From the IMG/VR virus record IMGVR_UViG_2541047917_000011: a stretch of DNA of 39,086 nucleotides; one strand, 5' to 3'. The position numbers and the translations under genes are program-made. Below, piece after piece: positions 4,247-39,086 of this stretch. The notes below the pieces were generated by a model. The model saw only the letters and a list, made by a program, of their open reading frames with translations, did no database searches and was not told where the DNA came from. Origin of the DNA: a virus. Lineage: Duplodnaviria > Heunggongvirae > Uroviricota > Caudoviricetes. Each line of letters opens with the position of its first letter. Positions within the stretch are counted from its first letter, which is position 1.

Positions 4247-4449
4247 GGGGCAATATCCTCTTCTGTACGGGCTTCTTCAGTCTCAATCACCGGGATCAGT
4301 AACAACAGCCCGGAGGGCAGCACCGGCGTGATGGCCACGTGAGGATTGGCGGCAATAATCCGGGGATAGCCCAGCGGGTCACCGTAGTACTGCCATGCCA
4401 GCGAATCCCAGCGCTCTCCGTCACGGGTAACATGTTCAAGAAACATCAC
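4234..4449 (-). CDS. Tail protein X (LysM-like, P2 gpX family)
   Basis: 71 aa with the GD..D.I...YYG...I.AANP...LP.G pattern typical of gpX; overlaps both neighbours. Confidence 0.6.
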   Translation of the reverse strand: MMFLEHVTRDGERWDSLAWQYYGDPLGYPRIIAANPHVAITPVLPSGLLLLIPVIETEEARTEEDIAPWLR

Positions 4450-5330
4450 ACACTCCTCGTCAGTATTCTGGCGGCCATTGCACTTAATCCCGGAGACATG
4501 CGGTTGAATGCTGTGCCGGCGGCGTTAAGCTGCCCGGAAACGGTATCCAGAGCACCTGCAATATTTCTTTTGTCCACACCACTCAGCGCAGACTGTGCCT
4601 GCTGTACATACGTGGCTGCTTCGCTGGCTGTTCTGGCCAGACTGATGGCATCGGGCATGGATTCAGAGAGTGCGTTAAACGCCGGAACACTTTTCCCCAG
4701 AGCCCCGGAGATATTACCCAGTCCGCTCATCAGCCCCGGCACACGGGTCAGTGCGACAACGGGGTTATCCTTCATTTTCTGTGTCACCCGAACGGCGCTG
4801 ATAGTGGTCTGGAGTACAGACTGCGCCTGTTTCGCATAGTTGACGCCGTTGCGGATGAACTGCGCCACCCCTGAAGGTGAAGGAATGGCACCGGAGACCG
4901 CCCCGACACCCGGGAGCTTCGTGCGTATTGCCGGTGGTTGCAGAGGATTTTTCGGATCACCGGTGTATTCCCGGAGAGACACGGTGGCACTGACAGCCAG
5001 CACGTTACCGGTGCTGTCTGTCTGCTCGCTGGTTGCGGTCACATCGGTAATCACGAACCAGCCACGATAGTCACCGTTGCCGAAGACCAGCGCCAGTGCC
5101 TGATGGGCTTTCATGGCTGTTCGCAGTCTCGCCAGCTCCACATCGGGTACACAATAATGCTGATGGAAAACCAGAGTTATCTGGATTTCGTCCAGCCTGT
5201 CGCCGACGAACTGCAGGCCAGGCTTACCCCCGATGCGGGCATGCTCCGCATAATCGACGCCGAACGTGGCCTCGAAGCCGTCCCAGTAGGTAATCAGCTC
5301 AAACTCAATATCACCCAGTACGGCAAACAT
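4446..5330 (-). CDS. Tail protein, GpU / DNA-circularisation N-terminal domain family (Mu N-like)
   Basis: 294 aa directly downstream of the tape measure gene (stop/start overlap at 5330). Confidence 0.6.
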   Translation of the reverse strand: MFAVLGDIEFELITYWDGFEATFGVDYAEHARIGGKPGLQFVGDRLDEIQITLVFHQHYCVPDVELARLRTAMKAHQALALVFGNGDYRGWFVITDVTATSEQTDSTGNVLAVSATVSLREYTGDPKNPLQPPAIRTKLPGVGAVSGAIPSPSGVAQFIRNGVNYAKQAQSVLQTTISAVRVTQKMKDNPVVALTRVPGLMSGLGNISGALGKSVPAFNALSESMPDAISLARTASEAATYVQQAQSALSGVDKRNIAGALDTVSGQLNAAGTAFNRMSPGLSAMAARILTRSV

Positions 5331-8281
5331 CAGCGGTACTCCTTACGTTGTTTCTGAGCCAGCAGACGCTCCAGCATTTTTTCCAGCTCATGCAGGCTCA
5401 TATTCAGGGCGCCAGTCAGTCCGGCAGGCGCTGTGGTTTCCCTGCCATTGAGGAAAAACTGAGGATTAAAGCTGACCTGGATACCACCAGACGTTCCACC
5501 GCCGGTTGCAGCTGCACCACGGCCTGAATATCCGGCAGCCAGGATTTCAGGCGAGGGGATACGGGGAACATCCGGTGTCATCTCATTTGCCAGACGTTGC
5601 CCTGGTAAAATCGATGCCCGGGTGGAGAGCGGAATAGCGGGCATGGAAGACAAACTATTGATTACGGCTCCGATCGCATTTTTAGCAGACGACATAAACC
5701 CATTGATATCGGGCAACGGCATACTGAAGCGAACACCTGAAGTGTTATCCCGTATTTCTGGCCCCTGAATGCTCACGGGCATTTTGGGGAGCAGTTCACT
5801 GGCCATTCGCTGCCCGGCCAGAGCTGCAAGCGGAGTGGTCCGCTGCAGGCCAATGGCGGCCCCCTGCGCGATATTGTCACCAAAGCCCATAAACACGCGG
5901 CTCGGCGAATGAATGCCCAGCTTTTCGCTGAACCAGCCACTGATGCTGTCACCCATTCCGGTTACACTGGATTTGAGCGACTCCCATTTGTTTTTGATAC
6001 CGTTAATCAGACCGTCGACAAGATGGCCACCGAAGTCGGTGAACTTTGCCGGCAGATCAACACCAAGATATTTCAGCGCAGCTGCAAAGGCTTTATAGAG
6101 CAGACCTGCCGGCGACCAGTTAATCAGCAGCTTACCAGTTCCCGCGATACCGCCGTTAAAGGCTTCCTGAATGTCAGCCCAGCACTGTTTAAACCAGCTA
6201 CTGATGCTGTCACCCATTCCGGTTACACTGGATTTGAGCGACCCCCATTTGTTTTTGATACCGTTAATCAGACCGTCGATAAGATGGCCACCGAAGTCGG
6301 TGAACTTTGCCGGCAGAGCAACGCCGAAATATTTCAGCGCAGCCGCAAAGGCTTTATAGAGCAGGCCTGCCGGCGACCAGTTAATCAGCAACTTACCAAT
6401 TCCCACAATGCCGCCGTTAAAGGCTTCCTGAATGTCTGCCCAGCGCTGTTTAAACCAGCCACTGACTGCCCCCCAGTTGCGGTAGATAAGGTAAGCTGCT
6501 GCCGCGACAGCGGTGATAACGAGACCGATGGGATTCATCATCAGCGCACGTCCAATCCAGAGAACAGCACGTCCGGCGAGCATAATTCCGCGAACCAGCC
6601 CCCCGGAGAGCACGCCACTCAGTGTTCTGGCTCCTTTGGCGACGGCGCTAAATCCGGTCACCAGCCAGCGGAGCTTACCGCCTTGCCCCAGTGCGAGCGA
6701 CAGACGAAGCCAGTTGGCCCGAAGTAAAACAGCATTTTTCCAGACACTTACAAAGGGGGAAATAAGGAGATTCAGCCCCAGTTTGAGACCAACAGTCGCT
6801 ATCTTAATCGCAAGGAGCGCACTGATGAGCTTAAAAGCCCCACTGACAAATTGCGGGTGAGTCGCTACCCAGTGTTTTGCCCCCTGAATGAGTGGAAGCA
6901 GTTCCTGAGTCAGAGAAATAAAAGATGGAGCTAATTGATCGCCCAGCGTAATTGCCAGATCACGACTGCTGACCATAAGTGCTTTAGTGGCTTCAAGGGG
7001 AGATTTCAGCCGCTGATCATAAGCACTGGCAAGCAAATCGTTATCCGCAGCCCTGAGAGCACCGGCACGGATCTCTCGATATCTGTCCATGTTGGCCAGC
7101 ATCGGGCGGATAAATGCCATGACCTGCATATCCGCGAACATATCGCCCAGACCAAAGTTTTTCGCCAGAGCCTGAAGTGCCTCATCTCTTGCCGTATCAT
7201 TCTTTATTTTCATGGCTGATTTGAAGCCGGCCAGCGCTTCGGGGCTTTTGGCATTGAGGTAACGTTCTATAACACTCAACATCCCTTCAATCGGAGAGAT
7301 CCCCGCAGCTTTATAACTCGCAATAGATCCCTGCAAATCAATACCCAGATCAGCAAACTGTTTCTGAGTATCGCGGGCAAAAATTTTGGTAAGAAAGTTT
7401 TTAAAATTATTGGCTGCTTCGTCGGTGGAACCTGCACCGATTTTTGCTATCTGGAGACTGGCCCCGATTTCAGCAACAGCCTCTTTTCCACTGGCAATAC
7501 CCGCCATCATTGGGGCCAGGGACTGCATCCACTTGACCTGATCCGGGATTTCAAATGACCCCTGGTCACCGGCATAAGCCATAATATTCTGAACGGCACC
7601 AAAATCTCTGGCCGCACCTTTCAGGGAGTTTTGCCAGACTGCGGCCACTTTTGCCCAGTCCTGAGCAGACGTGCGTGTTGCCGTTGCCGCGCGGGCAATA
7701 TCCGGCATCAGAAAACCGATATCTGACACATTATCAATATTGTCGCTGATGAGTGAACCCACCGCCTCCTGCAGCTCATCCTGATACTGATTGTATTTAA
7801 GCGCCCAGCCTTTTATCTGTCCGGCAAGTGCATCCCGCGTTTTATTGTCATATTTTGCGGTGATCGACATATCAATCATTTTGTCCTGAAAAGACATGGA
7901 CTGCTGAACGGCAGGGGAAACCGTATGATAAACAGTCTGTGCCATGCCATACGCTTCAATCCCCTGACCATACAGCGCCATGCGGTTAGCTTTCAGCGCA
8001 TCACTGGTAGCGGATGCCGCTGACAGACGGCGCTGCTGGCGCTCAATTTGCTCCATGGTGCGGCTTACCCGCAGCAGCTCGCTGTTGAGATGCTGCATCC
8101 GGGAAGAACCCAGTTGACCATAACGTTCTGTTGCACGGGTTAAAGCGTTCTGACGTTCCTGCAGGCGGCGTGAGGTATCGCTCAGGGAATCAAGCGCACG
8201 GCGGGTACCGCTCATTGCAGAACGGAATGTGCTACCAATCATCCCGCCGATAACAACGCCGACTGAAAACTGTCCCGACAT
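5330..8281 (-). CDS. Tail tape measure protein
   Basis: 983 aa, coiled-coil N-terminal half, Gly/Ala-rich hydrophobic segments, internal tandem repeat; located between chaperone and U/X/D genes. Confidence 0.85.
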   Translation of the reverse strand: MSGQFSVGVVIGGMIGSTFRSAMSGTRRALDSLSDTSRRLQERQNALTRATERYGQLGSSRMQHLNSELLRVSRTMEQIERQQRRLSAASATSDALKANRMALYGQGIEAYGMAQTVYHTVSPAVQQSMSFQDKMIDMSITAKYDNKTRDALAGQIKGWALKYNQYQDELQEAVGSLISDNIDNVSDIGFLMPDIARAATATRTSAQDWAKVAAVWQNSLKGAARDFGAVQNIMAYAGDQGSFEIPDQVKWMQSLAPMMAGIASGKEAVAEIGASLQIAKIGAGSTDEAANNFKNFLTKIFARDTQKQFADLGIDLQGSIASYKAAGISPIEGMLSVIERYLNAKSPEALAGFKSAMKIKNDTARDEALQALAKNFGLGDMFADMQVMAFIRPMLANMDRYREIRAGALRAADNDLLASAYDQRLKSPLEATKALMVSSRDLAITLGDQLAPSFISLTQELLPLIQGAKHWVATHPQFVSGAFKLISALLAIKIATVGLKLGLNLLISPFVSVWKNAVLLRANWLRLSLALGQGGKLRWLVTGFSAVAKGARTLSGVLSGGLVRGIMLAGRAVLWIGRALMMNPIGLVITAVAAAAYLIYRNWGAVSGWFKQRWADIQEAFNGGIVGIGKLLINWSPAGLLYKAFAAALKYFGVALPAKFTDFGGHLIDGLINGIKNKWGSLKSSVTGMGDSISSWFKQCWADIQEAFNGGIAGTGKLLINWSPAGLLYKAFAAALKYLGVDLPAKFTDFGGHLVDGLINGIKNKWESLKSSVTGMGDSISGWFSEKLGIHSPSRVFMGFGDNIAQGAAIGLQRTTPLAALAGQRMASELLPKMPVSIQGPEIRDNTSGVRFSMPLPDINGFMSSAKNAIGAVINSLSSMPAIPLSTRASILPGQRLANEMTPDVPRIPSPEILAAGYSGRGAAATGGGTSGGIQVSFNPQFFLNGRETTAPAGLTGALNMSLHELEKMLERLLAQKQRKEYR
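5921..6465. repeat. Tandem duplication (period 261 bp, about 2.1 copies, ~90% identical) inside the tape measure gene
   Basis: Motif AACCAGC(C/T)ACTGA recurs at 5931, 6192 and 6453; encodes repeated ~87-aa unit WFKQ.WADIQEAFNGGI... Confidence 0.85.
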
Positions 8282-8356: not shown

Positions 8357-8450
8357 CTATGATTTGTCGCCGTACTCGCTTTTTATTTGCTCTTCAGCCT
8401 GCTCCAGCCACATCTCCAGATCGTCAGTATCGAGGGCATCAATCTCCCCC
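8357..8450 (-). other. Putative frameshift extension of the tail chaperone (+1 frame ORF continuing to 8357; G5 slippery run at 8446-8450)
   Basis: The +1 frame is open from 8614 to 8357 and encodes an acidic protein-like tail ending ...DDLEMWLEQAEEQIKSEYGDKS; otherwise 157 nt non-coding gap before tape measure start. Confidence 0.4.
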
Positions 8451-8774
8451 GGCTGAAACCGGAACCATCTCGCCAGCAGCCCCTGCGCCTGCGTCAGCGC
8501 CCTGGTTGCTCTCACCCATCCCCGTGATGAGCTGAAATCGTTTCTGTAACTGCAGGTAATCAGCCAGATCCATATTGTCGAGATCTTCCGGGAGAAGACC
8601 AGTACTGCGGGCAATCAGCGGTTCGTCCCAGTCTGCCGGGTTTTTGCTGATTTTGCGCACCTGCTTCAGGTCTTTTACCGTCAGGCGTTTCAGTTCAACC
8701 AGCTCAATTCTGGTGCCTGCAGCAGTGGTGAAGGGATAAGACAATTTAAAAGTATCGGATGGGGTCTGTGACAT
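8439..8774 (-). CDS. Tail assembly chaperone (short form), candidate frameshift gene
   Basis: 111 aa ORF immediately upstream of the tape measure gene, AGGAG RBS 7 nt before ATG 8774, overlapping downstream ORF in another frame. Confidence 0.55.
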   Translation of the reverse strand: MSQTPSDTFKLSYPFTTAAGTRIELVELKRLTVKDLKQVRKISKNPADWDEPLIARSTGLLPEDLDNMDLADYLQLQKRFQLITGMGESNQGADAGAGAAGEMVPVSAGGD

Positions 8775-9155: not shown

Positions 9156-9677
9156 TCAGCCCCCGATATTGATACGGTAGTCAGTCAGTTGATCAACACC
9201 GCCGACCCGGAAGATGTTGGCCAGATAGTCCAGTTGCAGCAGCTCTTCACCATCCAGTACCTGTCTGATATACGTGCAGGTGAAGCTACTGGAGAACTCG
9301 GCGTTCTCGTGCTGTTTGAACGTCCCCAGCGGGTTCTTCTTGAACATAATCGTCAGGAAGGTGACCAGCGGGATTTCGTCAATCAGCCCCTGCGAGCTGT
9401 AGCGCTGGACGCTGGAACGACACTGCAGTGCCAGCGACCTGTACGGGTTCGCGGCAGACAGCATCGCATCGCGGTAAAAGCTGTTCCATTTGATTTCGCC
9501 TTCCAGTTTGTCAAAACCAGCCGGGAGTTCCACCTTACCCACCATCCCCAGCGCCTTGTGTTCCTGCATAATCATGGAGACATCGGGGAGTTTAACTTCC
9601 TCAGCCCGTCCCAGCAGGTTAGTACCATCCAGATAGATGTTGGCATTCGTGATGCGGTTTATCTCAATCTTTGACAT
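9156..9677 (-). CDS. Tail tube protein (Mu M / P2 FII family)
   Basis: 173 aa, immediately after sheath gene (overlap at 9677). Confidence 0.8.
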   Translation of the reverse strand: MSKIEINRITNANIYLDGTNLLGRAEEVKLPDVSMIMQEHKALGMVGKVELPAGFDKLEGEIKWNSFYRDAMLSAANPYRSLALQCRSSVQRYSSQGLIDEIPLVTFLTIMFKKNPLGTFKQHENAEFSSSFTCTYIRQVLDGEELLQLDYLANIFRVGGVDQLTDYRINIGG

Positions 9678-11104
9678 CAGTTGCCCCCTTTCAGGGTTAA
9701 CAGGTATTCCGAGGTGATCTCAGTCTCAAACGTCAGTCGCTCCAGCGGCGGTGGTGGCGTATATTTGTAGCTCAGCAACAGGTGCCCGGCGGCCAGCTCC
9801 GTCTCCGGATTGCGGGCCGGATCAAACCAGCAACGGAAGCCCAGTACCGCACCATCACCAGTCATTTTGCGACCGTAGGCGTTGACCGACTCCGTCAGTG
9901 CATCAATCAGCGCCTGAGTAATCGGCATGTCGATGTACTGCTGGCTGAAATAACGAATGGACTCGTTGATCACATCACCGGTGCGGCGAACGTTCTCAAA
10001 GTTACGCATATGGGTGACCGTTGGCCATGCTGCCGTCCGGTTACCCCACAGACGAAGGCCGCTGCCGTAACTGCTGAATACCGTGGTGATCCCCTGTTCG
10101 TTAAGCAGGTTCACCTCACTCTGCGGGTCATCAATCATCGCGGACAGCTGGCGCTCCACGCCGGTGATCCCCAGAATCTCCTGATTGGAGGATGACCACC
10201 AGTAGCCCTTGTCCAGATCGACTCTGGCACGCAGACCTGCTGCACGCTGGCTGAGCGGCTCCAGACGCTCTGTGTTTGTCACCGGGTCATATACCTTCAC
10301 ATGCGGATAGCACAGACGGACGCGGTCGGAGCTGGTATTGAAGTTGATGGTGCCTTCCGGGCCACGACCTGCCAGAGCCTGTGCAAAGGTGGTACCGACA
10401 GGCGCATCAATGTAGGTTACCGCGCCCAGCTTCTCTGCCATGGCGATAAGCTCAACTGCGACACTCTTCTGGGTGCAGAACACCGGCGCAATCAGAATTT
10501 TGGCGAAATAGCCGTACAGGTTGAAGCTGTCGTTAAGCAGCTTCATGCCAGTTCGGTTTCCGGCGCTATTCACCCCGCCGATGATGTCCGCCGCAGTCAC
10601 CTTCGACGGGTCCGCGTACTCATAGCTCACCTTCACGCTGCCACCGGCCTCAATAGCCTTGCCCAGGTTCGTGAGCACACCCGCCTGCGCATCAACACGG
10701 TAGTCCGTGTTCGCCGTGTGGGTGGTGCTGCCTTCACTGTTTTTCACCACCACATTAGCGACAACCGGATGCGCCAGTCTGGCCTGCCCTGTCGATTTGT
10801 CAAAGGTAACCACCTCATCCTCGATCGCCGTTTTATGTTTCGCCGGGTCGAGGACGTTAATGACCAGAACGGTACCTGCACCATGGTCATAAATCGCATC
10901 CAGCGCCTGCGGAATGGTAAAGCCGGTGAACTGGCTGCCAAATGCCGCTGCGTCTTTCTCAGACAGGCACTGTACCAGCGTATTGACATCCCCCATCGGG
11001 GCGGTACCAATCAGGCCAATAACGGCAGATTTCACCGTTTTAACCGGGCGGGCTCCGTTTTCCACCTCAATGGTTTCGGGACCATGCAGATAGTTAGCTG
11101 CCAT
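9677..11104 (-). CDS. Contractile tail sheath protein (Mu L / P2 FI family)
   Basis: 475 aa ORF with sheath-family character, precedes tube gene. Confidence 0.85.
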   Translation of the reverse strand: MAANYLHGPETIEVENGARPVKTVKSAVIGLIGTAPMGDVNTLVQCLSEKDAAAFGSQFTGFTIPQALDAIYDHGAGTVLVINVLDPAKHKTAIEDEVVTFDKSTGQARLAHPVVANVVVKNSEGSTTHTANTDYRVDAQAGVLTNLGKAIEAGGSVKVSYEYADPSKVTAADIIGGVNSAGNRTGMKLLNDSFNLYGYFAKILIAPVFCTQKSVAVELIAMAEKLGAVTYIDAPVGTTFAQALAGRGPEGTINFNTSSDRVRLCYPHVKVYDPVTNTERLEPLSQRAAGLRARVDLDKGYWWSSSNQEILGITGVERQLSAMIDDPQSEVNLLNEQGITTVFSSYGSGLRLWGNRTAAWPTVTHMRNFENVRRTGDVINESIRYFSQQYIDMPITQALIDALTESVNAYGRKMTGDGAVLGFRCWFDPARNPETELAAGHLLLSYKYTPPPPLERLTFETEITSEYLLTLKGGN

Positions 11105-33325: not shown

Positions 33326-33705
<380 letters not shown>

Positions 33706-33893
33706 AAGTCGTTCCCTCAGGAAGAAGTGATGAGTGACATTTTTCACAGCATCCAAACAATTCTATTTCATCGTTAGCCCTTGTCCTGTAAGGCAATTGC
33801 CTTAACACGCCCGCTATTCATCCTGCCGAACGTAACCGAACGCGCCGGATACATGAGCGGGGTTATCGAGTCGTTAGATCGAGGTATCCGGTT

Positions 33894-35099
33894 TTGAGCA
33901 AGACACCACTGACAGCAAAGGCCATAGACGCCGCACAACCAAAGGACAAGCAATACAAACTCACCGATTCACTGACGCCCGGCCTGTTTTTGCTGGTGCA
34001 TCCCAACGGATCAAAGTATTGGCGATTCAGGTTCTGGATGGACAAAAAAGAGTATTTGCAGGCTATTGGAGTGTACCCGCTAATCAGCCTCAAGGAAGCC
34101 CGTAAACGCGCTACAGAGAGCCGATCTCTGATTGCTAATGGAATTAATCCAGTGGAAGAAGCACGCAAGGAAAAAGCCATTGATGCGCTCAACATGGCGG
34201 CAGGTTTTAAGACGGTAGCGGAGGACTGGCTGGCTACCAGGGTCAGCGGGTGGTCAGAGTCCTACACGAAACAGGTTAGATCGGCACTGGAAAAAGATGT
34301 TTACCCCGTGCTGGGGAAGCGGTCAATTGTCGATATAACGGCCCGTGACGTGCTGGCATTGCTTCAGAAGAAAGAGCGTACCGCACCGGAACAAGCCAGG
34401 AAGCTACGCCAGCGTATCGGGGAGATCTTCAAATTTGCCGTTATCACCGAACTGGTTAACCGAAATCCGGTTGCAGATCTGGACTCGGCCCTGAAAGCCC
34501 GCCGACCAGGTCACAATGCATGGCTGCAAATTAGTGAAATTCCGCCCTTCTACAAAGCCCTTGAGAGAGCCGGGAGCGTTCAGATTCAGACGGCAATACG
34601 TTTGCTTATATTAACGGCATTAAGGACCGCAGAACTGCGTTTAATGCGCTGGGAATGGGTAGATCTGGAGTCAGCAACAATCACCCTACCCGCTGAAGTC
34701 ATGAAGGCCCGCCGACCGCACGTAGTCCCGTTATCCCGGCAGGCGGTCGAGCTATTACAGGACCAGTTTACCCGCAGCGGATACAGTGCTTTCGTCTTTC
34801 CGGGTCGATTCATGGATAAGCCATTGTCAGCCAGTGCGATACTGAAGGCGCTTGAGAGGATCGGCTATAAAGCCCTTGTCACTGGTCACGGATGGCGCAC
34901 AACATTCAGCACCGCACTTAACGAGTCCGGCAGGTACTCACCAGACTGGATCGAGATACAACTGGCCCACGTTCCAAAGGGAATCAGGGGAGTTTACAAT
35001 CAGGCGGCCTACCTGAAGCAACGACGAGCAATGATGCAATCGTACGCGGACGCCATTGATTCAATACTGGCTGGTGACGGCAATCCGCTGGAACCGTGA
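33894..35099 (+). CDS. intZ: Tyrosine site-specific integrase, P4 family
   Basis: 401 aa; N-terminal DUF4102-like arm domain, C-terminal HxxR and catalytic Tyr; TTG start; symbol assigned from genomic context, not from a search. Confidence 0.85.
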   Translation: MSKTPLTAKAIDAAQPKDKQYKLTDSLTPGLFLLVHPNGSKYWRFRFWMDKKEYLQAIGVYPLISLKEARKRATESRSLIANGINPVEEARKEKAIDALNMAAGFKTVAEDWLATRVSGWSESYTKQVRSALEKDVYPVLGKRSIVDITARDVLALLQKKERTAPEQARKLRQRIGEIFKFAVITELVNRNPVADLDSALKARRPGHNAWLQISEIPPFYKALERAGSVQIQTAIRLLILTALRTAELRLMRWEWVDLESATITLPAEVMKARRPHVVPLSRQAVELLQDQFTRSGYSAFVFPGRFMDKPLSASAILKALERIGYKALVTGHGWRTTFSTALNESGRYSPDWIEIQLAHVPKGIRGVYNQAAYLKQRRAMMQSYADAIDSILAGDGNPLEP

Positions 35100-35345
35100 A
35101 CTATAAGGCCGGATTCGTCCGGCTTTTCTTTCGCCTTACTGGTATAAAAGGTTAACAGGTTACACAACCTATCACTATTTTATCCTGTTATCCTTTTATA
35201 CAGCTATACCAATAAAATCAATGATTAAGCCAAGTTTGTAATAAAAAATCCGGGGATCGAAAATAGGATCAACGCAACAAAAAGCCCGGAAGGCCGCTAA
35301 CCAATCCGGGCGATATGGGAAACAAGTAAAAAGGAGAAATCCCAC

Positions 35346-36119
35346 ATGAATATTTTACCAACCGCCTACGCCCCACGGCAAGGCGAATCACTCGGTAAAC
35401 ACAGCCTTCAGAAAATCGACGCGATCCCGGAAGAAGTACGGAGCGCCATTGATGATGGCCTGAATGATATCCGCTTTAATGGTTATCGCTGGGAATGCAA
35501 CGCCAAAACAGGCTGGGCGCGTGTATCACCGATTTCATCACCTGCCGATGCAGAACCTGAATCACCAGAACAAAGCCAGGCAAACGCCCGCGCTGACTTC
35601 CTGGCGTTACAAGGTGAGTATTTATCAGTCACGCAGGAAACTAAAAGCGAGAAGAAATCAGCTACTGATATCGTGAACGAGCTACGCAGTAAGGCCGCTA
35701 AAACTTCGCAGACAGCACCACAGCAGGAAGCGCCGGAAGAACCGGAACAAGCGGAAGCCATGCAGGATAAAGAGACACAATACCAAACGGAAGAAAAAGG
35801 AATTTATTGCAGCTATGTCTGTTTGGGTGCGGCACGTAAGGCATTTGTCAGAAGTGGTTGCGAGAATAAAGCTAAAGCTACAGCCTGGAGCGTATTATCC
35901 AGCATTGCATCAGCAGCAAGAAAGCAGAATGATGGATCTTATGTATCTGAAGTTTGCCAGGCAAAAATAGCTGATGAATGGGGCATGAATCGCCGCACCG
36001 TAATTCGCCAGATGAAAATCCTGGTTGAGTTAGGACTCATTGAGCCATACGGGGAATATGTTATTGGTCAGCACGCAAGAAAATACAGAATGCTTTTTCA
36101 GGTCGAGAACGCAAGATAA
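35346..36119 (+). CDS. Winged-helix DNA-binding protein, candidate iteron-binding replication initiator
   Basis: 257 aa, acidic linker, C-terminal HTH (IADEWGMNRRTVIRQMKILVELGLIE); four iterons begin 65 bp downstream. Confidence 0.45.
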   Translation: MNILPTAYAPRQGESLGKHSLQKIDAIPEEVRSAIDDGLNDIRFNGYRWECNAKTGWARVSPISSPADAEPESPEQSQANARADFLALQGEYLSVTQETKSEKKSATDIVNELRSKAAKTSQTAPQQEAPEEPEQAEAMQDKETQYQTEEKGIYCSYVCLGAARKAFVRSGCENKAKATAWSVLSSIASAARKQNDGSYVSEVCQAKIADEWGMNRRTVIRQMKILVELGLIEPYGEYVIGQHARKYRMLFQVENAR

Positions 36120-36137
36120 CGACTAAAACGCATCAGT

Positions 36138-36167
36138 GGGTCACCTAAAATTGTGGCCCTTTTTATT
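36138..36167 (+). terminator. Intrinsic terminator after rep-like gene
   Basis: Stem GGGTCAC / GTGGCCC (one G-U pair), 8-nt loop, followed by TTTTTATT. Confidence 0.5.
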
Positions 36168-36183
36168 ACTTAAACCATCAACA

Positions 36184-36293
36184 GACGTGTGACATTTGGG
36201 ACACAGGTACGTGTGACATTTGGGATACAGGTCAGAGGGTGACGTGTGACATTTGGGATACAGGTCAGGCCATGACGTGTGACATTTGGGGCA
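36184..36293. repeat. Four direct iterons ACGTGTGACATTTGGG(A/G)YAC..., spacing 24/33/33 bp
   Basis: Core TGTGACATTTGGG found at 36188, 36212, 36245 and 36278. Confidence 0.8.
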
Positions 36294-37201
36294 CACATAG
36301 TATGAGATCTGTATATTCCTTTTTTCTTTTTAAGAGAAAGTAAGAGGCGCGCATTTTAAATGAACACAAACAAGCAACAAGCCCAGCGGACCTTCGGAAG
36401 ACTTCGAGCAATCGCCAGCTCAAAAGACGGTCTGGCAGTGATGGTTATCATCGACAGCTTTCTGAGCTACCGCACAGACACACAGCAGCAGTAAGCAAAC
36501 CGAATGGAAAGCAAAGCGCAAAAAACTCACTCACTGTAAAGCCGATGGGTTTTATCGCGTATACAGACCAGACAGGAAACAGCAGCAAAGCAGCGTATAG
36601 CCAGGTGCAGACAGTACCATCACACGACGCACAGCAGGCTGAGGTGACCACTCAAGCAAGTTTATCCCCGCCGCCGACCACCGCAAACCATCCTGATAGT
36701 GCCAAATTCGAACGGAGTGCTACCTTAAACGCGATTAACACACATAAGCGCTACACTTGCTTACCTGAAAACTTCACAGCGTCACAGCGCGTTTTAGACA
36801 CGTTAAAATCGATGCGATTTCATTAATTTTTCAGCCATCCAGAAATCGGCTTCATATCAAGCCGATTCATCAGCGCGGCGTCCTGCATTGCAGGTTATCG
36901 AAAGAATCAATAACTTTCGCCAATGGCGAAAGTTAAACAATCAATAAAGTCCAGAGTTGGACTATTCACCCAAATTTGGGGCAATGAAATCACACAGATC
37001 CTGCCAGGCTATTCCATCCACCACACAGAACGCTGAGATCTGATATTACCGCCGCACCATTCCACGCCAGACGAATCAAAACAGGCTTACCCTTCCAAGT
37101 GGATAGCTAAAAATTAAGGCTGTCAGAATGCGTTATATTGCGTTTAAACGGCATCGAATTTTAATGTGCGCAATGGTGCCAGATTACAGGCAAAAAAAAT
37201 C

Positions 37202-37230
37202 CCGCCGGAGAAAGCGGGGAAGTGAAATGA
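37202..37230 (-). terminator. Strong rho-independent terminator on minus strand
   Basis: Minus strand reads CCCGC-tttctccg-GCGGG followed by eight T. Confidence 0.6.
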
Positions 37231-37452
37231 ATCGTTGTAGTTATAGATCACATTTTGAGTAAGGGTAACCAGCCCTTGAGTAATATTATCCCTGCATTAC
37301 GTGAGATGCGCAATTATTTTTTGCTAATTAAAAGTTTTGTAAACATTACAGAATCTCCCCTTTCACTATATGGTAAAAGATGTGAAACAGGGACAGGAGG
37401 AATATAATATTAAGTATCAACAGTAATGTTGGCCTTTAATTTTATTCAGGGC

Positions 37453-37495
37453 GCGGTGAGGGTTTTCTCCATATTTTCCTCACCGCTACTTTTTG
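37453..37495 (+). terminator. Hairpin plus T-tract immediately upstream of alpA RBS
   Basis: Perfect 9-bp stem GCGGTGAGG / CCTCACCGC with 16-nt loop, then TACTTTTT. Confidence 0.45.
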
Positions 37496-37505
37496 AGGTG
37501 AGAAC

Positions 37506-37697
37506 ATGAATGATAGCGAATTAATGACGGTTAACGAGGTAGCAGCTTTATTCGGCGTTACCCGTCGGACAATATTCCGGTGGATGAACAAGATTAAAGG
37601 CTGGCCCGTCCCGGTCAGTCCGATTGGCTCAAGAATTAAGTTTATCCGATCTGAGATTTTGGAATTCTATAAAAACAAAGGCGCTCGCCACCAATGA
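37506..37697 (+). CDS. alpA: AlpA-family phage/island transcriptional regulator (excisionase-like HTH)
   Basis: 63 aa; MTVNEVAALFGVTRRTIFRWM motif typical of AlpA; GAGGTGA RBS. Confidence 0.75.
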   Translation: MNDSELMTVNEVAALFGVTRRTIFRWMNKIKGWPVPVSPIGSRIKFIRSEILEFYKNKGARHQ

Positions 37698-37773
37698 AAA
37701 CAGCTACTGAGATTATCAAATAACCTATTGATTTAAAAAGCTAGCTACCGCAATTTCTGAAGGAATAGGCAGC

Positions 37774-38100
37774 ATGAAAATCAAAGCAAACACAATTAAA
37801 GAAATAACATCAATCAAAATAAAAGGAGCAGATGCCATGCATTCATTAGACAGTTATTTTCAGCGCACGACAGCCCCTAAATCAGCCGCCCAGGAACGCC
37901 GTGAGGAATTCCAGGAAAAAGTGATGCGTTCTGCTGATTATATTGCGGACAAGTTCGTGGAAACGGTTCGGCCACTTGTTGATGAAGTAGCTGATAAACT
38001 TCAGTCTGAAATGCCGGAAGACATGGAAGGCACTGCAAAGGCGCGACTCCTTTTTGAATTAAGTCGTCGTTTCGGCGTGTCAATAAGCACTTTTAAATAA
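37774..38100 (+). CDS. Hypothetical island protein
   Basis: 108 aa ORF, AT-rich. Confidence 0.35.
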   Translation: MKIKANTIKEITSIKIKGADAMHSLDSYFQRTTAPKSAAQERREEFQEKVMRSADYIADKFVETVRPLVDEVADKLQSEMPEDMEGTAKARLLFELSRRFGVSISTFK

Positions 38101-38117
38101 TCGGAGGAGGAAAGACA

Positions 38118-38660
38118 ATGGACGCATTTGATGTACTGACAAACAAAGGCGATGAACTGGTAGCACAGCGTGATAAAACCGCCAACGAAGGGGAACGCGC
38201 ACTGTTAAATAAGCAGATTAAAGCGATCCGTATGGCCCAGTTTAAATTAATCAGCAATGAAGTTATCGAAATAATTAAACCGCAGATCCCACAAATCGTT
38301 GCTGACGCTATTAAAGCCGCCGGACTGGAGAAACGCATTGCCGGGCTGAAAACGAACGCAGAGAAAATGGAGATGCACAAACAGAGCGGTGCTCCGACTA
38401 CGGATGAGTACTTCTCACCGGATGCTGAGTTTATGGCGCAGGTTGAGGAACGTCTGGGTAGCTGTCTCACCGAGGAACAGCGTCGCTATTTTGATGGAGT
38501 GGATAGTTCGGCAGGTATTGACCTGAACTCGTATTTCGGTCGTGAAATTGAGCATTTTGATGCCGCCCCGTCTATGCCGGAGCCAGAACCAGAAATGGCC
38601 GCCGATCCTGAAGCTGAGCAACGGAAACGCGTATTCAATGCGATAGGGATTCGGTACTGA
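38118..38660 (+). CDS. Hypothetical island protein (acidic, coiled-coil)
   Basis: 180 aa ORF with GGAGGA RBS. Confidence 0.45.
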   Translation: MDAFDVLTNKGDELVAQRDKTANEGERALLNKQIKAIRMAQFKLISNEVIEIIKPQIPQIVADAIKAAGLEKRIAGLKTNAEKMEMHKQSGAPTTDEYFSPDAEFMAQVEERLGSCLTEEQRRYFDGVDSSAGIDLNSYFGREIEHFDAAPSMPEPEPEMAADPEAEQRKRVFNAIGIRY

Positions 38661-38711
38661 TCGGATAAAAGAAAGCCGGGAATTACCCCGGCTGACTTAA
38701 CAATGTGACCA

Positions 38712-39086
38712 ATGAACAAATCGGACAAGACAAACAGGATAAGCAGTCTCGAAACAATGTTCGGGAACTATATTAGCACAAGTCCGGAGAAAATCATCAT
38801 GTTGGCACTACGCATCATGCAGGGCATCGCTAAGACCCTCGCAGAACATGTCTTAGACCTGAAACATTCGCCACTGAGCAAACAGGCCATGAAGCGCCAA
38901 ACGCTTCGTCTGTGGGCTGAATATTCGCTTGGAACTATCAATAAAATCATCGATATGAAATCGGGGCCGAGCAACCAGAGCGCGGAGGAAATGGAGTTCA
39001 TCAGGCGTTTAATTCTCATTCGCAGAGACATTCATAGCCAGTTACACAGCGTGGGAATCGATATTAATGATGGGACGGGCGATTAA
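38712..39086 (+). CDS. Hypothetical island protein
   Basis: 124 aa ORF ending with TAA at the window end. Confidence 0.4.
   Translation: MNKSDKTNRISSLETMFGNYISTSPEKIIMLALRIMQGIAKTLAEHVLDLKHSPLSKQAMKRQTLRLWAEYSLGTINKIIDMKSGPSNQSAEEMEFIRRLILIRRDIHSQLHSVGIDINDGTGD

Follow-up and report, generated by a model that had tools for sequence, protein, structure and literature searches.

We analyzed a window of 39,086 nt, by which we mean the whole stretch of viral DNA under study, with a focus on a tail gene cluster arranged in the order sheath, tube, hypothetical, gpE-like chaperone, tape measure protein (TMP), gpU-like, X, D, V, W, J and I (Table 1). The assignment of the central gene as a tape measure gene, made earlier in a sequence-only reading of the window, agrees with three lines of evidence, including: (i) matches to PF10145 (PhageMin_Tail; 74 bits against a cutoff of 33.2, E = 2e-20), to TIGR01760 (58.9 bits against a cutoff of 28.8, E = 4e-16) and to phrog_28, phrog_794 and phrog_58 ("tail length tape measure protein"); (ii) its position between the gpE-like chaperone and the gpU/X/D-like genes; and (iii) the RefSeq annotation as tape measure of a 100% identical gene in Escherichia coli AVS0225. 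In relatives, RefSeq annotates an overlapping "GpE family" frameshift product at the chaperone gene. The presence of both sheath and tube genes indicates a contractile tail of the P2 type.

Its genes identify the element as a transposable E. coli prophage of the BcepMu-like kind, with a contractile tail of P2 type. Its early module, as annotated by RefSeq in the 99.97% identical prophage of AVS0225, comprises a DDE transposase, a MuB/ExeA-like ATPase, Gam and Mor. Among phage records, Escherichia phage PhiKM (PQ738613) is the nearest; it is assigned to Bcepmuvirus, and its TMP gene shares 96.6% nucleotide identity with that of the window. BcepMu and PhiKM (Bcepmuvirus) resemble the window element in joining a Mu-type module (transposition, Mor and Gam) to a tail cluster of the P2 type; this likeness concerns the host element and not the repeat described below, which in PhiKM is interrupted by an N gap. 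Near-identical copies of the prophage are found at unrelated chromosomal sites, inside irp2 in AVS0225 and adjoining eutB/intZ in the window (junction at approximately 33397-33405), as expected of transposition. Our literature search found nothing on PhiKM or on measured tails of E. coli BcepMu-like phages.

Within the TMP, a hydrophobic region lies just N-terminal to the repeat and coincides with a mosaic patch that differs from the allele of strain EC958. A single-sequence AlphaFold2 model of low confidence (mean pLDDT 42, pTM 0.25), of which the secondary-structure trend alone is usable, places residues 11-788, including both repeat units, in helix and the C-terminal end after residue 788 mostly in coil; the homologues among the matches listed were more than 86% identical. 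At a mean pLDDT of 42, the model does not establish an extended helical geometry for the unit.

Table 1. Features of the tail region and of the repeat array in the window (nt, nucleotides; aa, amino acids).
Feature	Coordinates	Strand	Description
Tail sheath	9677..11104	-	phrog_23; RefSeq "tail sheath"
Tail tube	9156..9677	-	RefSeq "phage major tail tube protein"
Tail assembly chaperone (gpE-like)	8439..8774	-	directly upstream of TMP; phrog_166 tail protein; RefSeq "phage tail assembly protein"
Tail tape measure protein (TMP) gene	5330..8281	-	983-aa ORF, 2952 nt; profile matches and RefSeq annotation
PhageMin_Tail (PF10145) core of TMP	7262..7807	-	aa 159-340
Hydrophobic TMP region	6482..6850	-	adjoins the repeat on its N-terminal side; hydropathy (Kyte-Doolittle) peaks at aa 478-508 and 579-600
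Upstream boundary repeat	6453..6465	-	TCAGTGGCTGGTT; 13 nt, encodes ..SGWF
Repeat unit 1 ("alpha")	6197..6457	-	aa 609-695, WFKQRWADIQ...GDSISS; codon register
Junction copy of boundary repeat	6192..6204	-	TCAGTAGCTGGTT; 13 nt, one mismatch
Repeat unit 2 ("beta")	5936..6196	-	aa 696-782, WFKQCWADIQ...GDSISG; 16 nt and 8 aa different from unit 1
Downstream boundary repeat	5931..5943	-	TCAGTGGCTGGTT; 13 nt
Shadow ORFs	5909-6727 (272 aa), 5913-6098, 6171-6359	+	mirror images of the repeat; not considered genes
gpU-like tail protein	4446..5330	-	directly downstream of TMP; phrog_788; PhiKM annotation "tail protein U"

An 87-codon tandem repeat in the tape measure gene

Tandem Repeats Finder (TRF) reported a single array, at 5931-6465, with a score of 958; it comprises 2.0 copies with a period of 261 and 93% matches and is free of indels, and TRF gave no shorter period in the TMP gene. 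A repeat search recovered two head-to-tail copies of 261 nt (5931-6191 and 6192-6452) at a spacing of 261 nt, without spacer and with 94% identity; the two copies are identical at 245 of 261 nt (93.9%) and differ at the other 16. By comparison, when set against the gene's other in-frame segments of 261 nt (598 segments), unit 1 shares 25.9% +/- 3.0% identity (maximum 36.4%), so the identity between the copies is far beyond chance. The period corresponds to 87 codons and preserves the frame of the minus-strand TMP ORF, and the two units differ at 8 of 87 residues. These results bear out the in-frame tandem duplication of 87 codons that had been proposed from the letters of the window, with no indels and with both copies in the TMP frame. 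Of the limits proposed for the array (5921-6465), the end is exact, and the start lies 10 nt before the measured position of 5931. No Pfam family covering the 87-aa unit was found, the best match being DUF5009 at 20 bits, below the 25-bit cutoff.

The segment at 6453-6465 had been taken for the start of a third unit. It corresponds instead to 13 nt of boundary microhomology, which recurs at 5931-5943 and 6192-6204, and an imperfect homologous boundary repeat also flanks the single unit of single-copy outgroup alleles. A genuine partial third copy was therefore rejected, as the match comprises 13 nt alone and the short repeat is also present around the single unit of the outgroups.

On the opposite strand, the sequence-only reading was right about the shadow ORFs at 5913-6098 and 6171-6359, which mirror the repeat. 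Counted by frame, the copies differ synonymously at 7 codons and non-synonymously at 8 in the TMP frame, where none of the changes gives a stop; the corresponding counts in the open plus-strand frame are 4 and 11. Since the differences are mostly non-synonymous in the antisense frame and the TMP frame is the most synonymous, these ORFs were rejected as genes.

Repeats of this size are known to trouble short-read assemblies, and the expectation that this one would do so was correct: in the PhiKM record, a gap of 100 N falls within this very repeat, and the CDS bears the annotation "disrupted by sequencing gap". It could be argued from this that the true gene has one unit and that the assembler made a false second copy, an explanation that we regard as extremely improbable. 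The copies in the window differ at 16 fixed positions and are therefore not a collapsed or re-used pile of reads; an assembly error would usually merge such repeats and not produce copies that have diverged. In addition, the 2952-nt gene is 100% identical in the closed E. coli genomes AVS0225 and AVS0655, and two-copy alleles with matching alpha- and beta-specific variants are present in approximately 440 of 634 complete genomes (a share derived from a sample of 60 genomes). The assembly artefact was accordingly rejected, and the second copy is taken as real.

Copy-number alleles and unequal exchange between units

Among E. coli prophages, the TMP gene forms an allele series with CDSs of 2691, 2952 and 3213 nt, which encode proteins of 896, 983 and 1070 aa with one, two and three units, respectively. 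Of the best 120 protein matches, 26 have 896 aa, 42 have 983 aa and carry two units, and 17 have 1070 aa; no four-unit allele was found among these 120 matches, where such alleles would be expected to score highest. The repeat region is carried by 634 complete genomes, and copy number was classed in an evenly spaced sample of 60 of them by span and place counts, which were checked on 9 of the 60 loci and on the locus of Klebsiella phage KP12 (phage search). The two-copy allele is the majority in this sample (about 42 of 60 genomes), with approximate shares of 70% for two-copy, 20% for three-copy and 8% for one-copy alleles. The TMP alleles of one, two and three units agree with the earlier proposal that the repeat is a hotspot for length variation. 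We found no paper on copy-number variation of this tape measure gene.

The three-unit gene of strain C9 shows 0 differences from the two-unit gene of the window over the 2430 nt outside the array. Units 1 and 3 of C9 are identical to units 1 and 2 of the window, and its middle unit is an exact chimera with a beta head (nt 59 or earlier) and an alpha tail (nt 67 onward). The one-unit gene of IPCEC48 likewise shows 0 differences from the two-unit gene of EC958 over the 2430 nt outside the array, and its single unit is an exact chimera of the head of EC958 unit 1 and the tail of EC958 unit 2. In a survey of 85 full-length proteins, 11 different one-copy chimeras were identified among the protein haplotypes, and the multi-copy alleles typically have alpha first, a chimeric unit in the middle and beta last. 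The polarity of the chimeras is as expected, with contractions joining a unit-1 head to a unit-2 tail, and the new middle unit of expansions joining a unit-2 head to a unit-1 tail.

Based on these breakpoints, the three-copy allele of C9 and the one-copy allele of IPCEC48 are products of unequal crossover. Being approximately 94% identical, the 261-nt units would misalign and recombine unequally, leading to contraction to one unit or expansion to three. The exchange may take place between sister chromosomes, or among the many phage copies made in replicative transposition, and each event would leave a chimeric unit whose breakpoint records the crossover.

The existence of single-copy alleles within the same prophage group could also suggest that the 896-aa alleles are ancestral and that the second copy of the window is a fresh duplication that has arisen repeatedly. 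We consider this very unlikely, since the units of these alleles are chimeric, with an alpha head, a beta tail and derived states of alpha (F44, A47) as well as of beta, their breakpoints are many and different, and the IPCEC48 unit can be composed exactly from the two units of EC958. A fresh duplication would, moreover, give near-identical copies and not a dS of 0.15. As the close 896-aa relatives carry derived states of both units, they are secondary contractions of a two-copy gene and not its ancestors.

Origin and divergence of the two copies

Units 1 and 2 are separated by 8 synonymous and 8 non-synonymous differences (dS 0.148, dN 0.041), and the resulting omega of 0.28 shows that both copies diverged under purifying selection. 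Between the window and EC958 lineages, units in matching positions are 8 and 4 nt apart, compared with 16-20 nt for the two units within a gene; matching units are thus closer across lineages than the two units of one gene, and the two-copy form is accordingly the common allele. The duplication had been described as recent, and this description holds in part. The later gains and losses of units are, as read from the allele pairs, demonstrably recent, unlike the founding two-copy form. The duplication itself is not, given the dS between its copies, the closeness of matching units across lineages and the prevalence of the two-copy allele in the genomes sampled.

In the single-copy outgroups (E. 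coli 3-72, AVS0747 and Klebsiella phage KP12) alpha and beta states are interleaved, indicating that both copies hold derived changes. The ancestor would have been a single-copy gene in which an imperfect direct repeat of 13 nt (S-x-W-F) flanked the block at either end, and slippage or illegitimate recombination between these 13-nt repeats may have duplicated the 261 nt, a putative founding mechanism that has the flanking microhomology as its one basis. The two copies then diverged under purifying selection, and the two-copy gene became the common allele of the group.

Alternatively, a young duplication could have been generated by unequal recombination between two diverged single-copy phages, in which case the 6% divergence would predate the event and give no age. 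The gene is indeed a mosaic: 60 sites distinguish a 384-nt patch just upstream of the repeat from its EC958 counterpart, against near identity elsewhere, and the central third of the TMP is approximately 35% identical to the 821-aa class, with both ends above 90%. Alpha and beta each hold about half of the derived changes, a pattern that this origin also predicts. Nevertheless, we consider it unlikely, as none of the 26 one-copy proteins is a pure-alpha or pure-beta allele, all of them being chimeras, and the alpha-then-beta architecture is common to lineages that differ by 70 nt upstream. With this architecture shared across lineages, even an inter-phage event would be neither private to the window genome nor recent relative to the spread of the group.

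Taken as a whole, the reading that we favor, to which we assign a probability of roughly 0.82, is that of an in-frame 87-residue tandem repeat of the TMP that would have been founded by duplication of a single block, has diverged and has been reshaped by unequal crossover, with a predicted effect on tail length.

Tail length and comparison with other tape measure repeats

In established tape measure biology, the protein is stretched out within the tail tube and determines the point at which polymerisation of tube and sheath stops. By the published ratio, each TMP residue corresponds to 0.15 nm of tail (PMC5099701, PMC9928086, PMC3556154); in phage TP901-1, deletion of 347 aa shortened the tail from 118 to 65 nm, that is, 0.153 nm per aa (PMC5099701), and phiCbK and LF82 phages are further cases in which the rule of 0.15 nm per aa has been used. 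At this ratio, each 87-residue unit should add approximately 13 nm, or roughly three tube/sheath rings, and the arithmetic of the earlier 13-nm prediction is correct. The predicted tails would measure approximately 134, 147 and 160 nm for one, two and three units, with the window encoding the 147-nm version.

It is conceivable, although we consider it doubtful, that the units are functional modules whose number matters beyond length, or whose contribution is non-proportional and not 13 nm per unit, for example through chaperone binding or passage through the periplasm or membrane during DNA injection. The units directly follow hydrophobic segments, so that a role in membrane passage could apply; both copies are under purifying selection; and the module is conserved across the cluster representatives described below. 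In TP901-1, some TMP segments matter for infectivity and not for length alone, and the repeats close to the C-terminus have their effect on plaque formation and not on assembly (PMC5099701). On the other hand, all TMPs that have been subjected to in-frame deletion or duplication showed a length that scaled with the residues removed, and the scaling held even beside transmembrane segments (TP901-1 delta-TM2-3 tail of 107.6 nm versus 118 nm in the wild type). Alleles of one, two and three units all persist in many genomes, which suggests that all are tolerated. We favor a proportional contribution of each unit to tail length.

Natural pairs of prophages with TMPs identical save for one 87-residue unit (window/AVS0225 versus C9, and EC958 versus IPCEC48) offer a ready-made test of 0.15 nm per residue in a contractile-tailed transposable phage. 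The carriers include clinically important E. coli lineages, as EC958, the sole strain whose lineage was checked, belongs to ST131. On the practical side, the repeat breaks or mis-sizes the gene in short-read assemblies, as in PhiKM, and three allele lengths should be expected in annotation and prophage typing.

Beyond these prophages, matches to the 87-aa unit at E<=1e-3 extend to 604 cluster representatives. For the matches listed with at least 700 aa, 57 have one copy, 24 have two, 8 have three and 2 have four. In these matches the copies are spaced by 42-49, 76 or 87 aa, with a unit identity of 55% within a protein versus 42% between proteins. As a tentative proposal, which we hold at low confidence, the 87-residue block might be an uncatalogued, family-wide "ruler module" of P2/BcepMu-type TMPs, and the E. 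coli array might act as a reversible contingency locus. If so, frequent unequal crossovers would keep making short, medium and long contractile tails of the lengths predicted above, and selection by the thickness of the host envelope or capsule would keep the three alleles in the population, at roughly 8%, 70% and 20% of carriers for one, two and three units.

In-frame deletions and duplications of the lambda gpH tape measure gene were reportedly engineered by Katsura and Hendrix (1984; cited in PMC9928086). Similar changes were engineered in the TMP of TP901-1 (Pedersen 2000; Mahony 2016; PMC5099701), and TMP repeats have been proposed to ease natural duplication and deletion (Mahony et al.; PMC5099701). 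The locus described here shares with these engineered TMPs the in-frame gain and loss of segments and the expected proportional length of approximately 0.15 nm per residue. It differs in that the alleles of one, two and three units are natural, belong to E. coli prophages with a contractile tail and are known from genes alone, and in that the unit has 87 aa and not 11 or 18 aa.

Aromatic-marked tandem repeats of 11 aa (11/18 aa) have been described in siphophage TMPs (Belcaid et al., 2011; PMC3271669). As in the present case, the numbers of units are variable, and the history of duplication and loss can be read from comparison of units within and between genes. The aromatic positions of the 87-aa unit (1, 2, 6, 13, 27, 34, 37, 43, 44, 52, 55 and 71) show no 11-residue periodicity. 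Membership of the 11/18-aa Trp/Phe-marked family was rejected on the basis of the unit length, the lack of an 11-residue register and the lack of a shorter TRF period; the array belongs to a different repeat family, in a myovirus-type tail.

Repeats in TMPs, like the length rule, belong to the textbook knowledge of phages, and the present locus is an ordinary case that changes no concept and whose value is practical. Tandem repeats are present in about half of 45,500 TMPs and are recognised contributors to length variation (Moreno-Rodriguez et al., 2026; PMC13585406). Compared with such surveys, the locus provides a long-unit repeat from a phage with a contractile tail and resolves the breakpoints of individual events of gain and loss.

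The repeat array, its gene and its prophage

Our analysis identified a single strong array at 5931-6465 of the window (Tandem Repeats Finder; period 261, 2.0 copies, 93% matches, no indels), and a repeat search aligned 5931-6191 with 6192-6452 at 94% identity, confirming the tandem repeat described in a sequence-only reading of this DNA. The two copies differ at 16 of 261 nucleotides and 8 of 87 residues. Against 598 other in-frame segments of the gene, unit 1 reaches 25.9% +/- 3.0% identity (maximum 36.4%), which places the array far beyond chance. That reading also had the frame and the gene right: both 87-aa units lie in the codon register of an ORF encoding a tail tape measure protein (TMP), as indicated by its position and by matches to PF10145 (74 bits, cutoff 33.2), to TIGR01760 (58.9 bits, cutoff 28.8) and, in PHROG, to several families annotated as "tail length tape measure protein". 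The neighbors are a gpE-like chaperone on one side and gpU/X/D-like genes on the other, with sheath and tube upstream, an order that is that of a P2-type contractile-tail cluster. The plus-strand shadow ORFs it named are present; because it is in the tape measure frame that the inter-copy differences have the largest synonymous share, these ORFs behave as non-coding mirror images of the repeat.

Features of the tape measure gene in the window
Feature	Window position	Strand	Protein
TMP ORF	5330..8281	minus	983 aa; contains the array
Unit 1 (alpha)	6197-6457	minus	aa 609-695, codon register
Unit 2 (beta)	5936-6196	minus	aa 696-782, codon register
71-residue segment	5588-5800	minus	aa 828-898

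The 71-residue segment, missing in 821-aa relatives (E. coli 3-72 and AVS0747, Klebsiella phage KP12), has a short direct repeat at either edge (GQRMASE and GQRLANE) and is a second length-changing indel with microhomology flanks. A 384-nt patch directly upstream of the repeat (window ~6482-6781, minus strand, aa ~500-600) differs from the E. coli EC958 allele at 60 sites, against at most 2 differences per 150 nt in the remainder of the gene, and the central third (aa 100-480) is ~35% identical to the 821-aa class, compared with >90% at both ends. The gene is mosaic.

A prophage of E. coli AVS0225 is 99.97-99.98% identical to window 1-33405 and encodes a DDE transposase, an ExeA/MuB-like ATPase, Gam and Mor. 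Among phage records, the nearest is PhiKM, which is assigned to Bcepmuvirus. The AVS0225 prophage lies within irp2 of the yersiniabactin island, splitting this gene, which is consistent with inactivated yersiniabactin synthesis. In the window, the prophage ends at ~33397-33405 and the host flank (33406-39086) is the E. coli eutB/intZ (CPZ-55) region, a junction found in 0 of 5426 complete E. coli genomes. The differing insertion sites are consistent with a transposable phage. The window begins inside the tail-fibre gene, and its first 200 nt (1-201) match 4 or 5 successive AVS0225 tail-fibre segments (prophage locus L012 28249-29137; 88-97% identity); therefore, this gene also holds tandem repeats. 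Beyond the window start, a recombinase-family (invertase-like) gene of AVS0225 (L012 31673-32245) adjoins fragmentary, oppositely oriented tail-fibre pieces (L012 29434-31607), an arrangement that hints at tail-fibre inversion of the Mu Gin/P1 Cin type. Beyond the prophage, the host flank has overlapping 24- and 33-nt tandem repeats at 36185-36290 (ACGTGTGACATTTGGGACACAGGT..., 91-95% matches).

Unit number among E. coli prophages

An identical (100%) 2952-nt TMP gene is present in two closed genomes, which rules out an assembly artefact or an array private to the window. The whole gene was matched by 636 and the repeat region by 634 of 5426 complete E. coli genomes. Among 60 genomes evenly spaced through these 634, we found two units in ~42, three in 12 and one in 5, and 1 was partial. 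At the loci fetched (nine of the 60, plus the KP12 locus from the phage search), three distant outgroups, each with a single copy, have a TMP CDS of 2466 nt, and the others one of 2691, 2952 or 3213 nt, encoding 896, 983 or 1070 aa with one, two or three units, respectively. The 120 best protein database hits include 26 one-unit, 42 two-unit and 17 three-unit proteins of these lengths, and none with four units. The repeat is thus a hotspot for length variation, as had been proposed, and the accompanying warning about assembly was borne out in PhiKM (L001; PQ738613), where a 100-N gap within unit 1 (4916-5015) splits TMP into two CDSs annotated as "disrupted by sequencing gap". Two odd-length proteins, P0033 (995 aa; 12-residue insert between units) and P0018 (1084 aa; first unit of 101 residues), show that the array also undergoes length changes other than whole units.

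Origin and turnover of the units

What had been taken for the start of a third copy is instead a 13-nt boundary repeat, TCAGTGGCTGGTT (..SGWF). One copy immediately precedes unit 1, another closes unit 2, and the one at the junction has a single mismatch. An imperfect version flanks the single unit of the outgroups (11/13 positions match in 3-72; 14/17 in AVS0747/KP12). The 13-nt repeat probably represents the microhomology that gave rise to the founding duplication.

This duplication had been considered recent. The corresponding units of the window and EC958 alleles are 8 and 4 nt apart, and units inside either gene 16-20 nt apart; therefore, the event predates the split of these lineages. 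Alpha and beta are separated by 8 synonymous and 8 non-synonymous differences (dS 0.148, dN 0.041, omega 0.28), and both are under purifying selection. In the 821-aa single-copy outgroups, alpha and beta states are interleaved along the unit, so each copy has acquired derived states and simple contraction does not account for the outgroups. Judged from these comparisons and from the alleles described next, the founding duplication is old relative to the spread of this prophage group, so that calling it recent was incorrect, and the copy-number changes are recent and recurrent.

Outside the array (2430 nt), the three-unit allele of E. coli C9 shows 0 differences from the window gene; units 1 and 3 of this allele are the window's units 1 and 2, and between them lies an exact chimera (beta to nt 59, alpha from nt 67 on). 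Likewise, the one-unit allele of IPCEC48 shows 0 differences outside the array from the two-unit gene of EC958, and its unit is an exact chimera of the head of unit 1 and the tail of unit 2. These alleles are the reciprocal products expected from unequal crossing-over. Across 85 full-length proteins, we found 11 different kinds of one-copy chimera, and multi-copy alleles typically run alpha first, chimeric middle, beta last. EC958 unit 1 has a beta-like patch (nt 21-67) flanked by alpha markers, as would result from a single expansion and a later single contraction.

Searched alone against representatives of clusters built at 50% identity, the unit gave 604 matches at E<=1e-3 and 323 at E<=1e-10; no Pfam family covering it was found. 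Among the hits listed, those with 700 aa or more carry one copy in 57 cases, two in 24, three in 8 and four in 2, with spacings of 42-49, 76 or 87 aa, among others. Units are 55% identical within and 42% between proteins, which indicates independent duplications or concerted evolution. No within-protein pair among these relatives exceeds 74% identity, so, compared with the family at large, the window's pair (91% aa identity) is young.

Tail length and comparison with known repeats

From established tape measure biology, each unit would lengthen the tail. In TP901-1, removal of 347 residues shortened the tail from 118 to 65 nm, or 0.153 nm per aa (PMC5099701), and a rule of 0.15 nm per aa gave good predictions for the tails of phiCbK and Colossus (PMC3556154). 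The same rule served to identify Cyrano among the LF82 phages; its tail measured 259 nm, ~13% above the ~230 nm predicted (PMC9928086). The earlier figure of 13 nm per unit (87 aa x 0.15) is arithmetically correct, and tails of ~134, 147 and 160 nm are predicted for one, two and three units. A single-sequence AlphaFold2 model was helical in both units, with a pLDDT (42) too low to fix their geometry. Since the units adjoin hydrophobic segments (aa 478-508 and 579-600), they may also take part in membrane passage.

That TMPs contain tandem repeats, and that these contribute to the evolution of tail length, is well established (PMC3271669; PMC5099701; PMC13585406), and this locus is a new, well-resolved instance. 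Siphophage TMP repeats have an 11/18-aa aromatic periodicity (PMC3271669; PMC5099701), which is absent from the 87-aa unit; the locus has a long unit and lies in a contractile-tailed transposable prophage.
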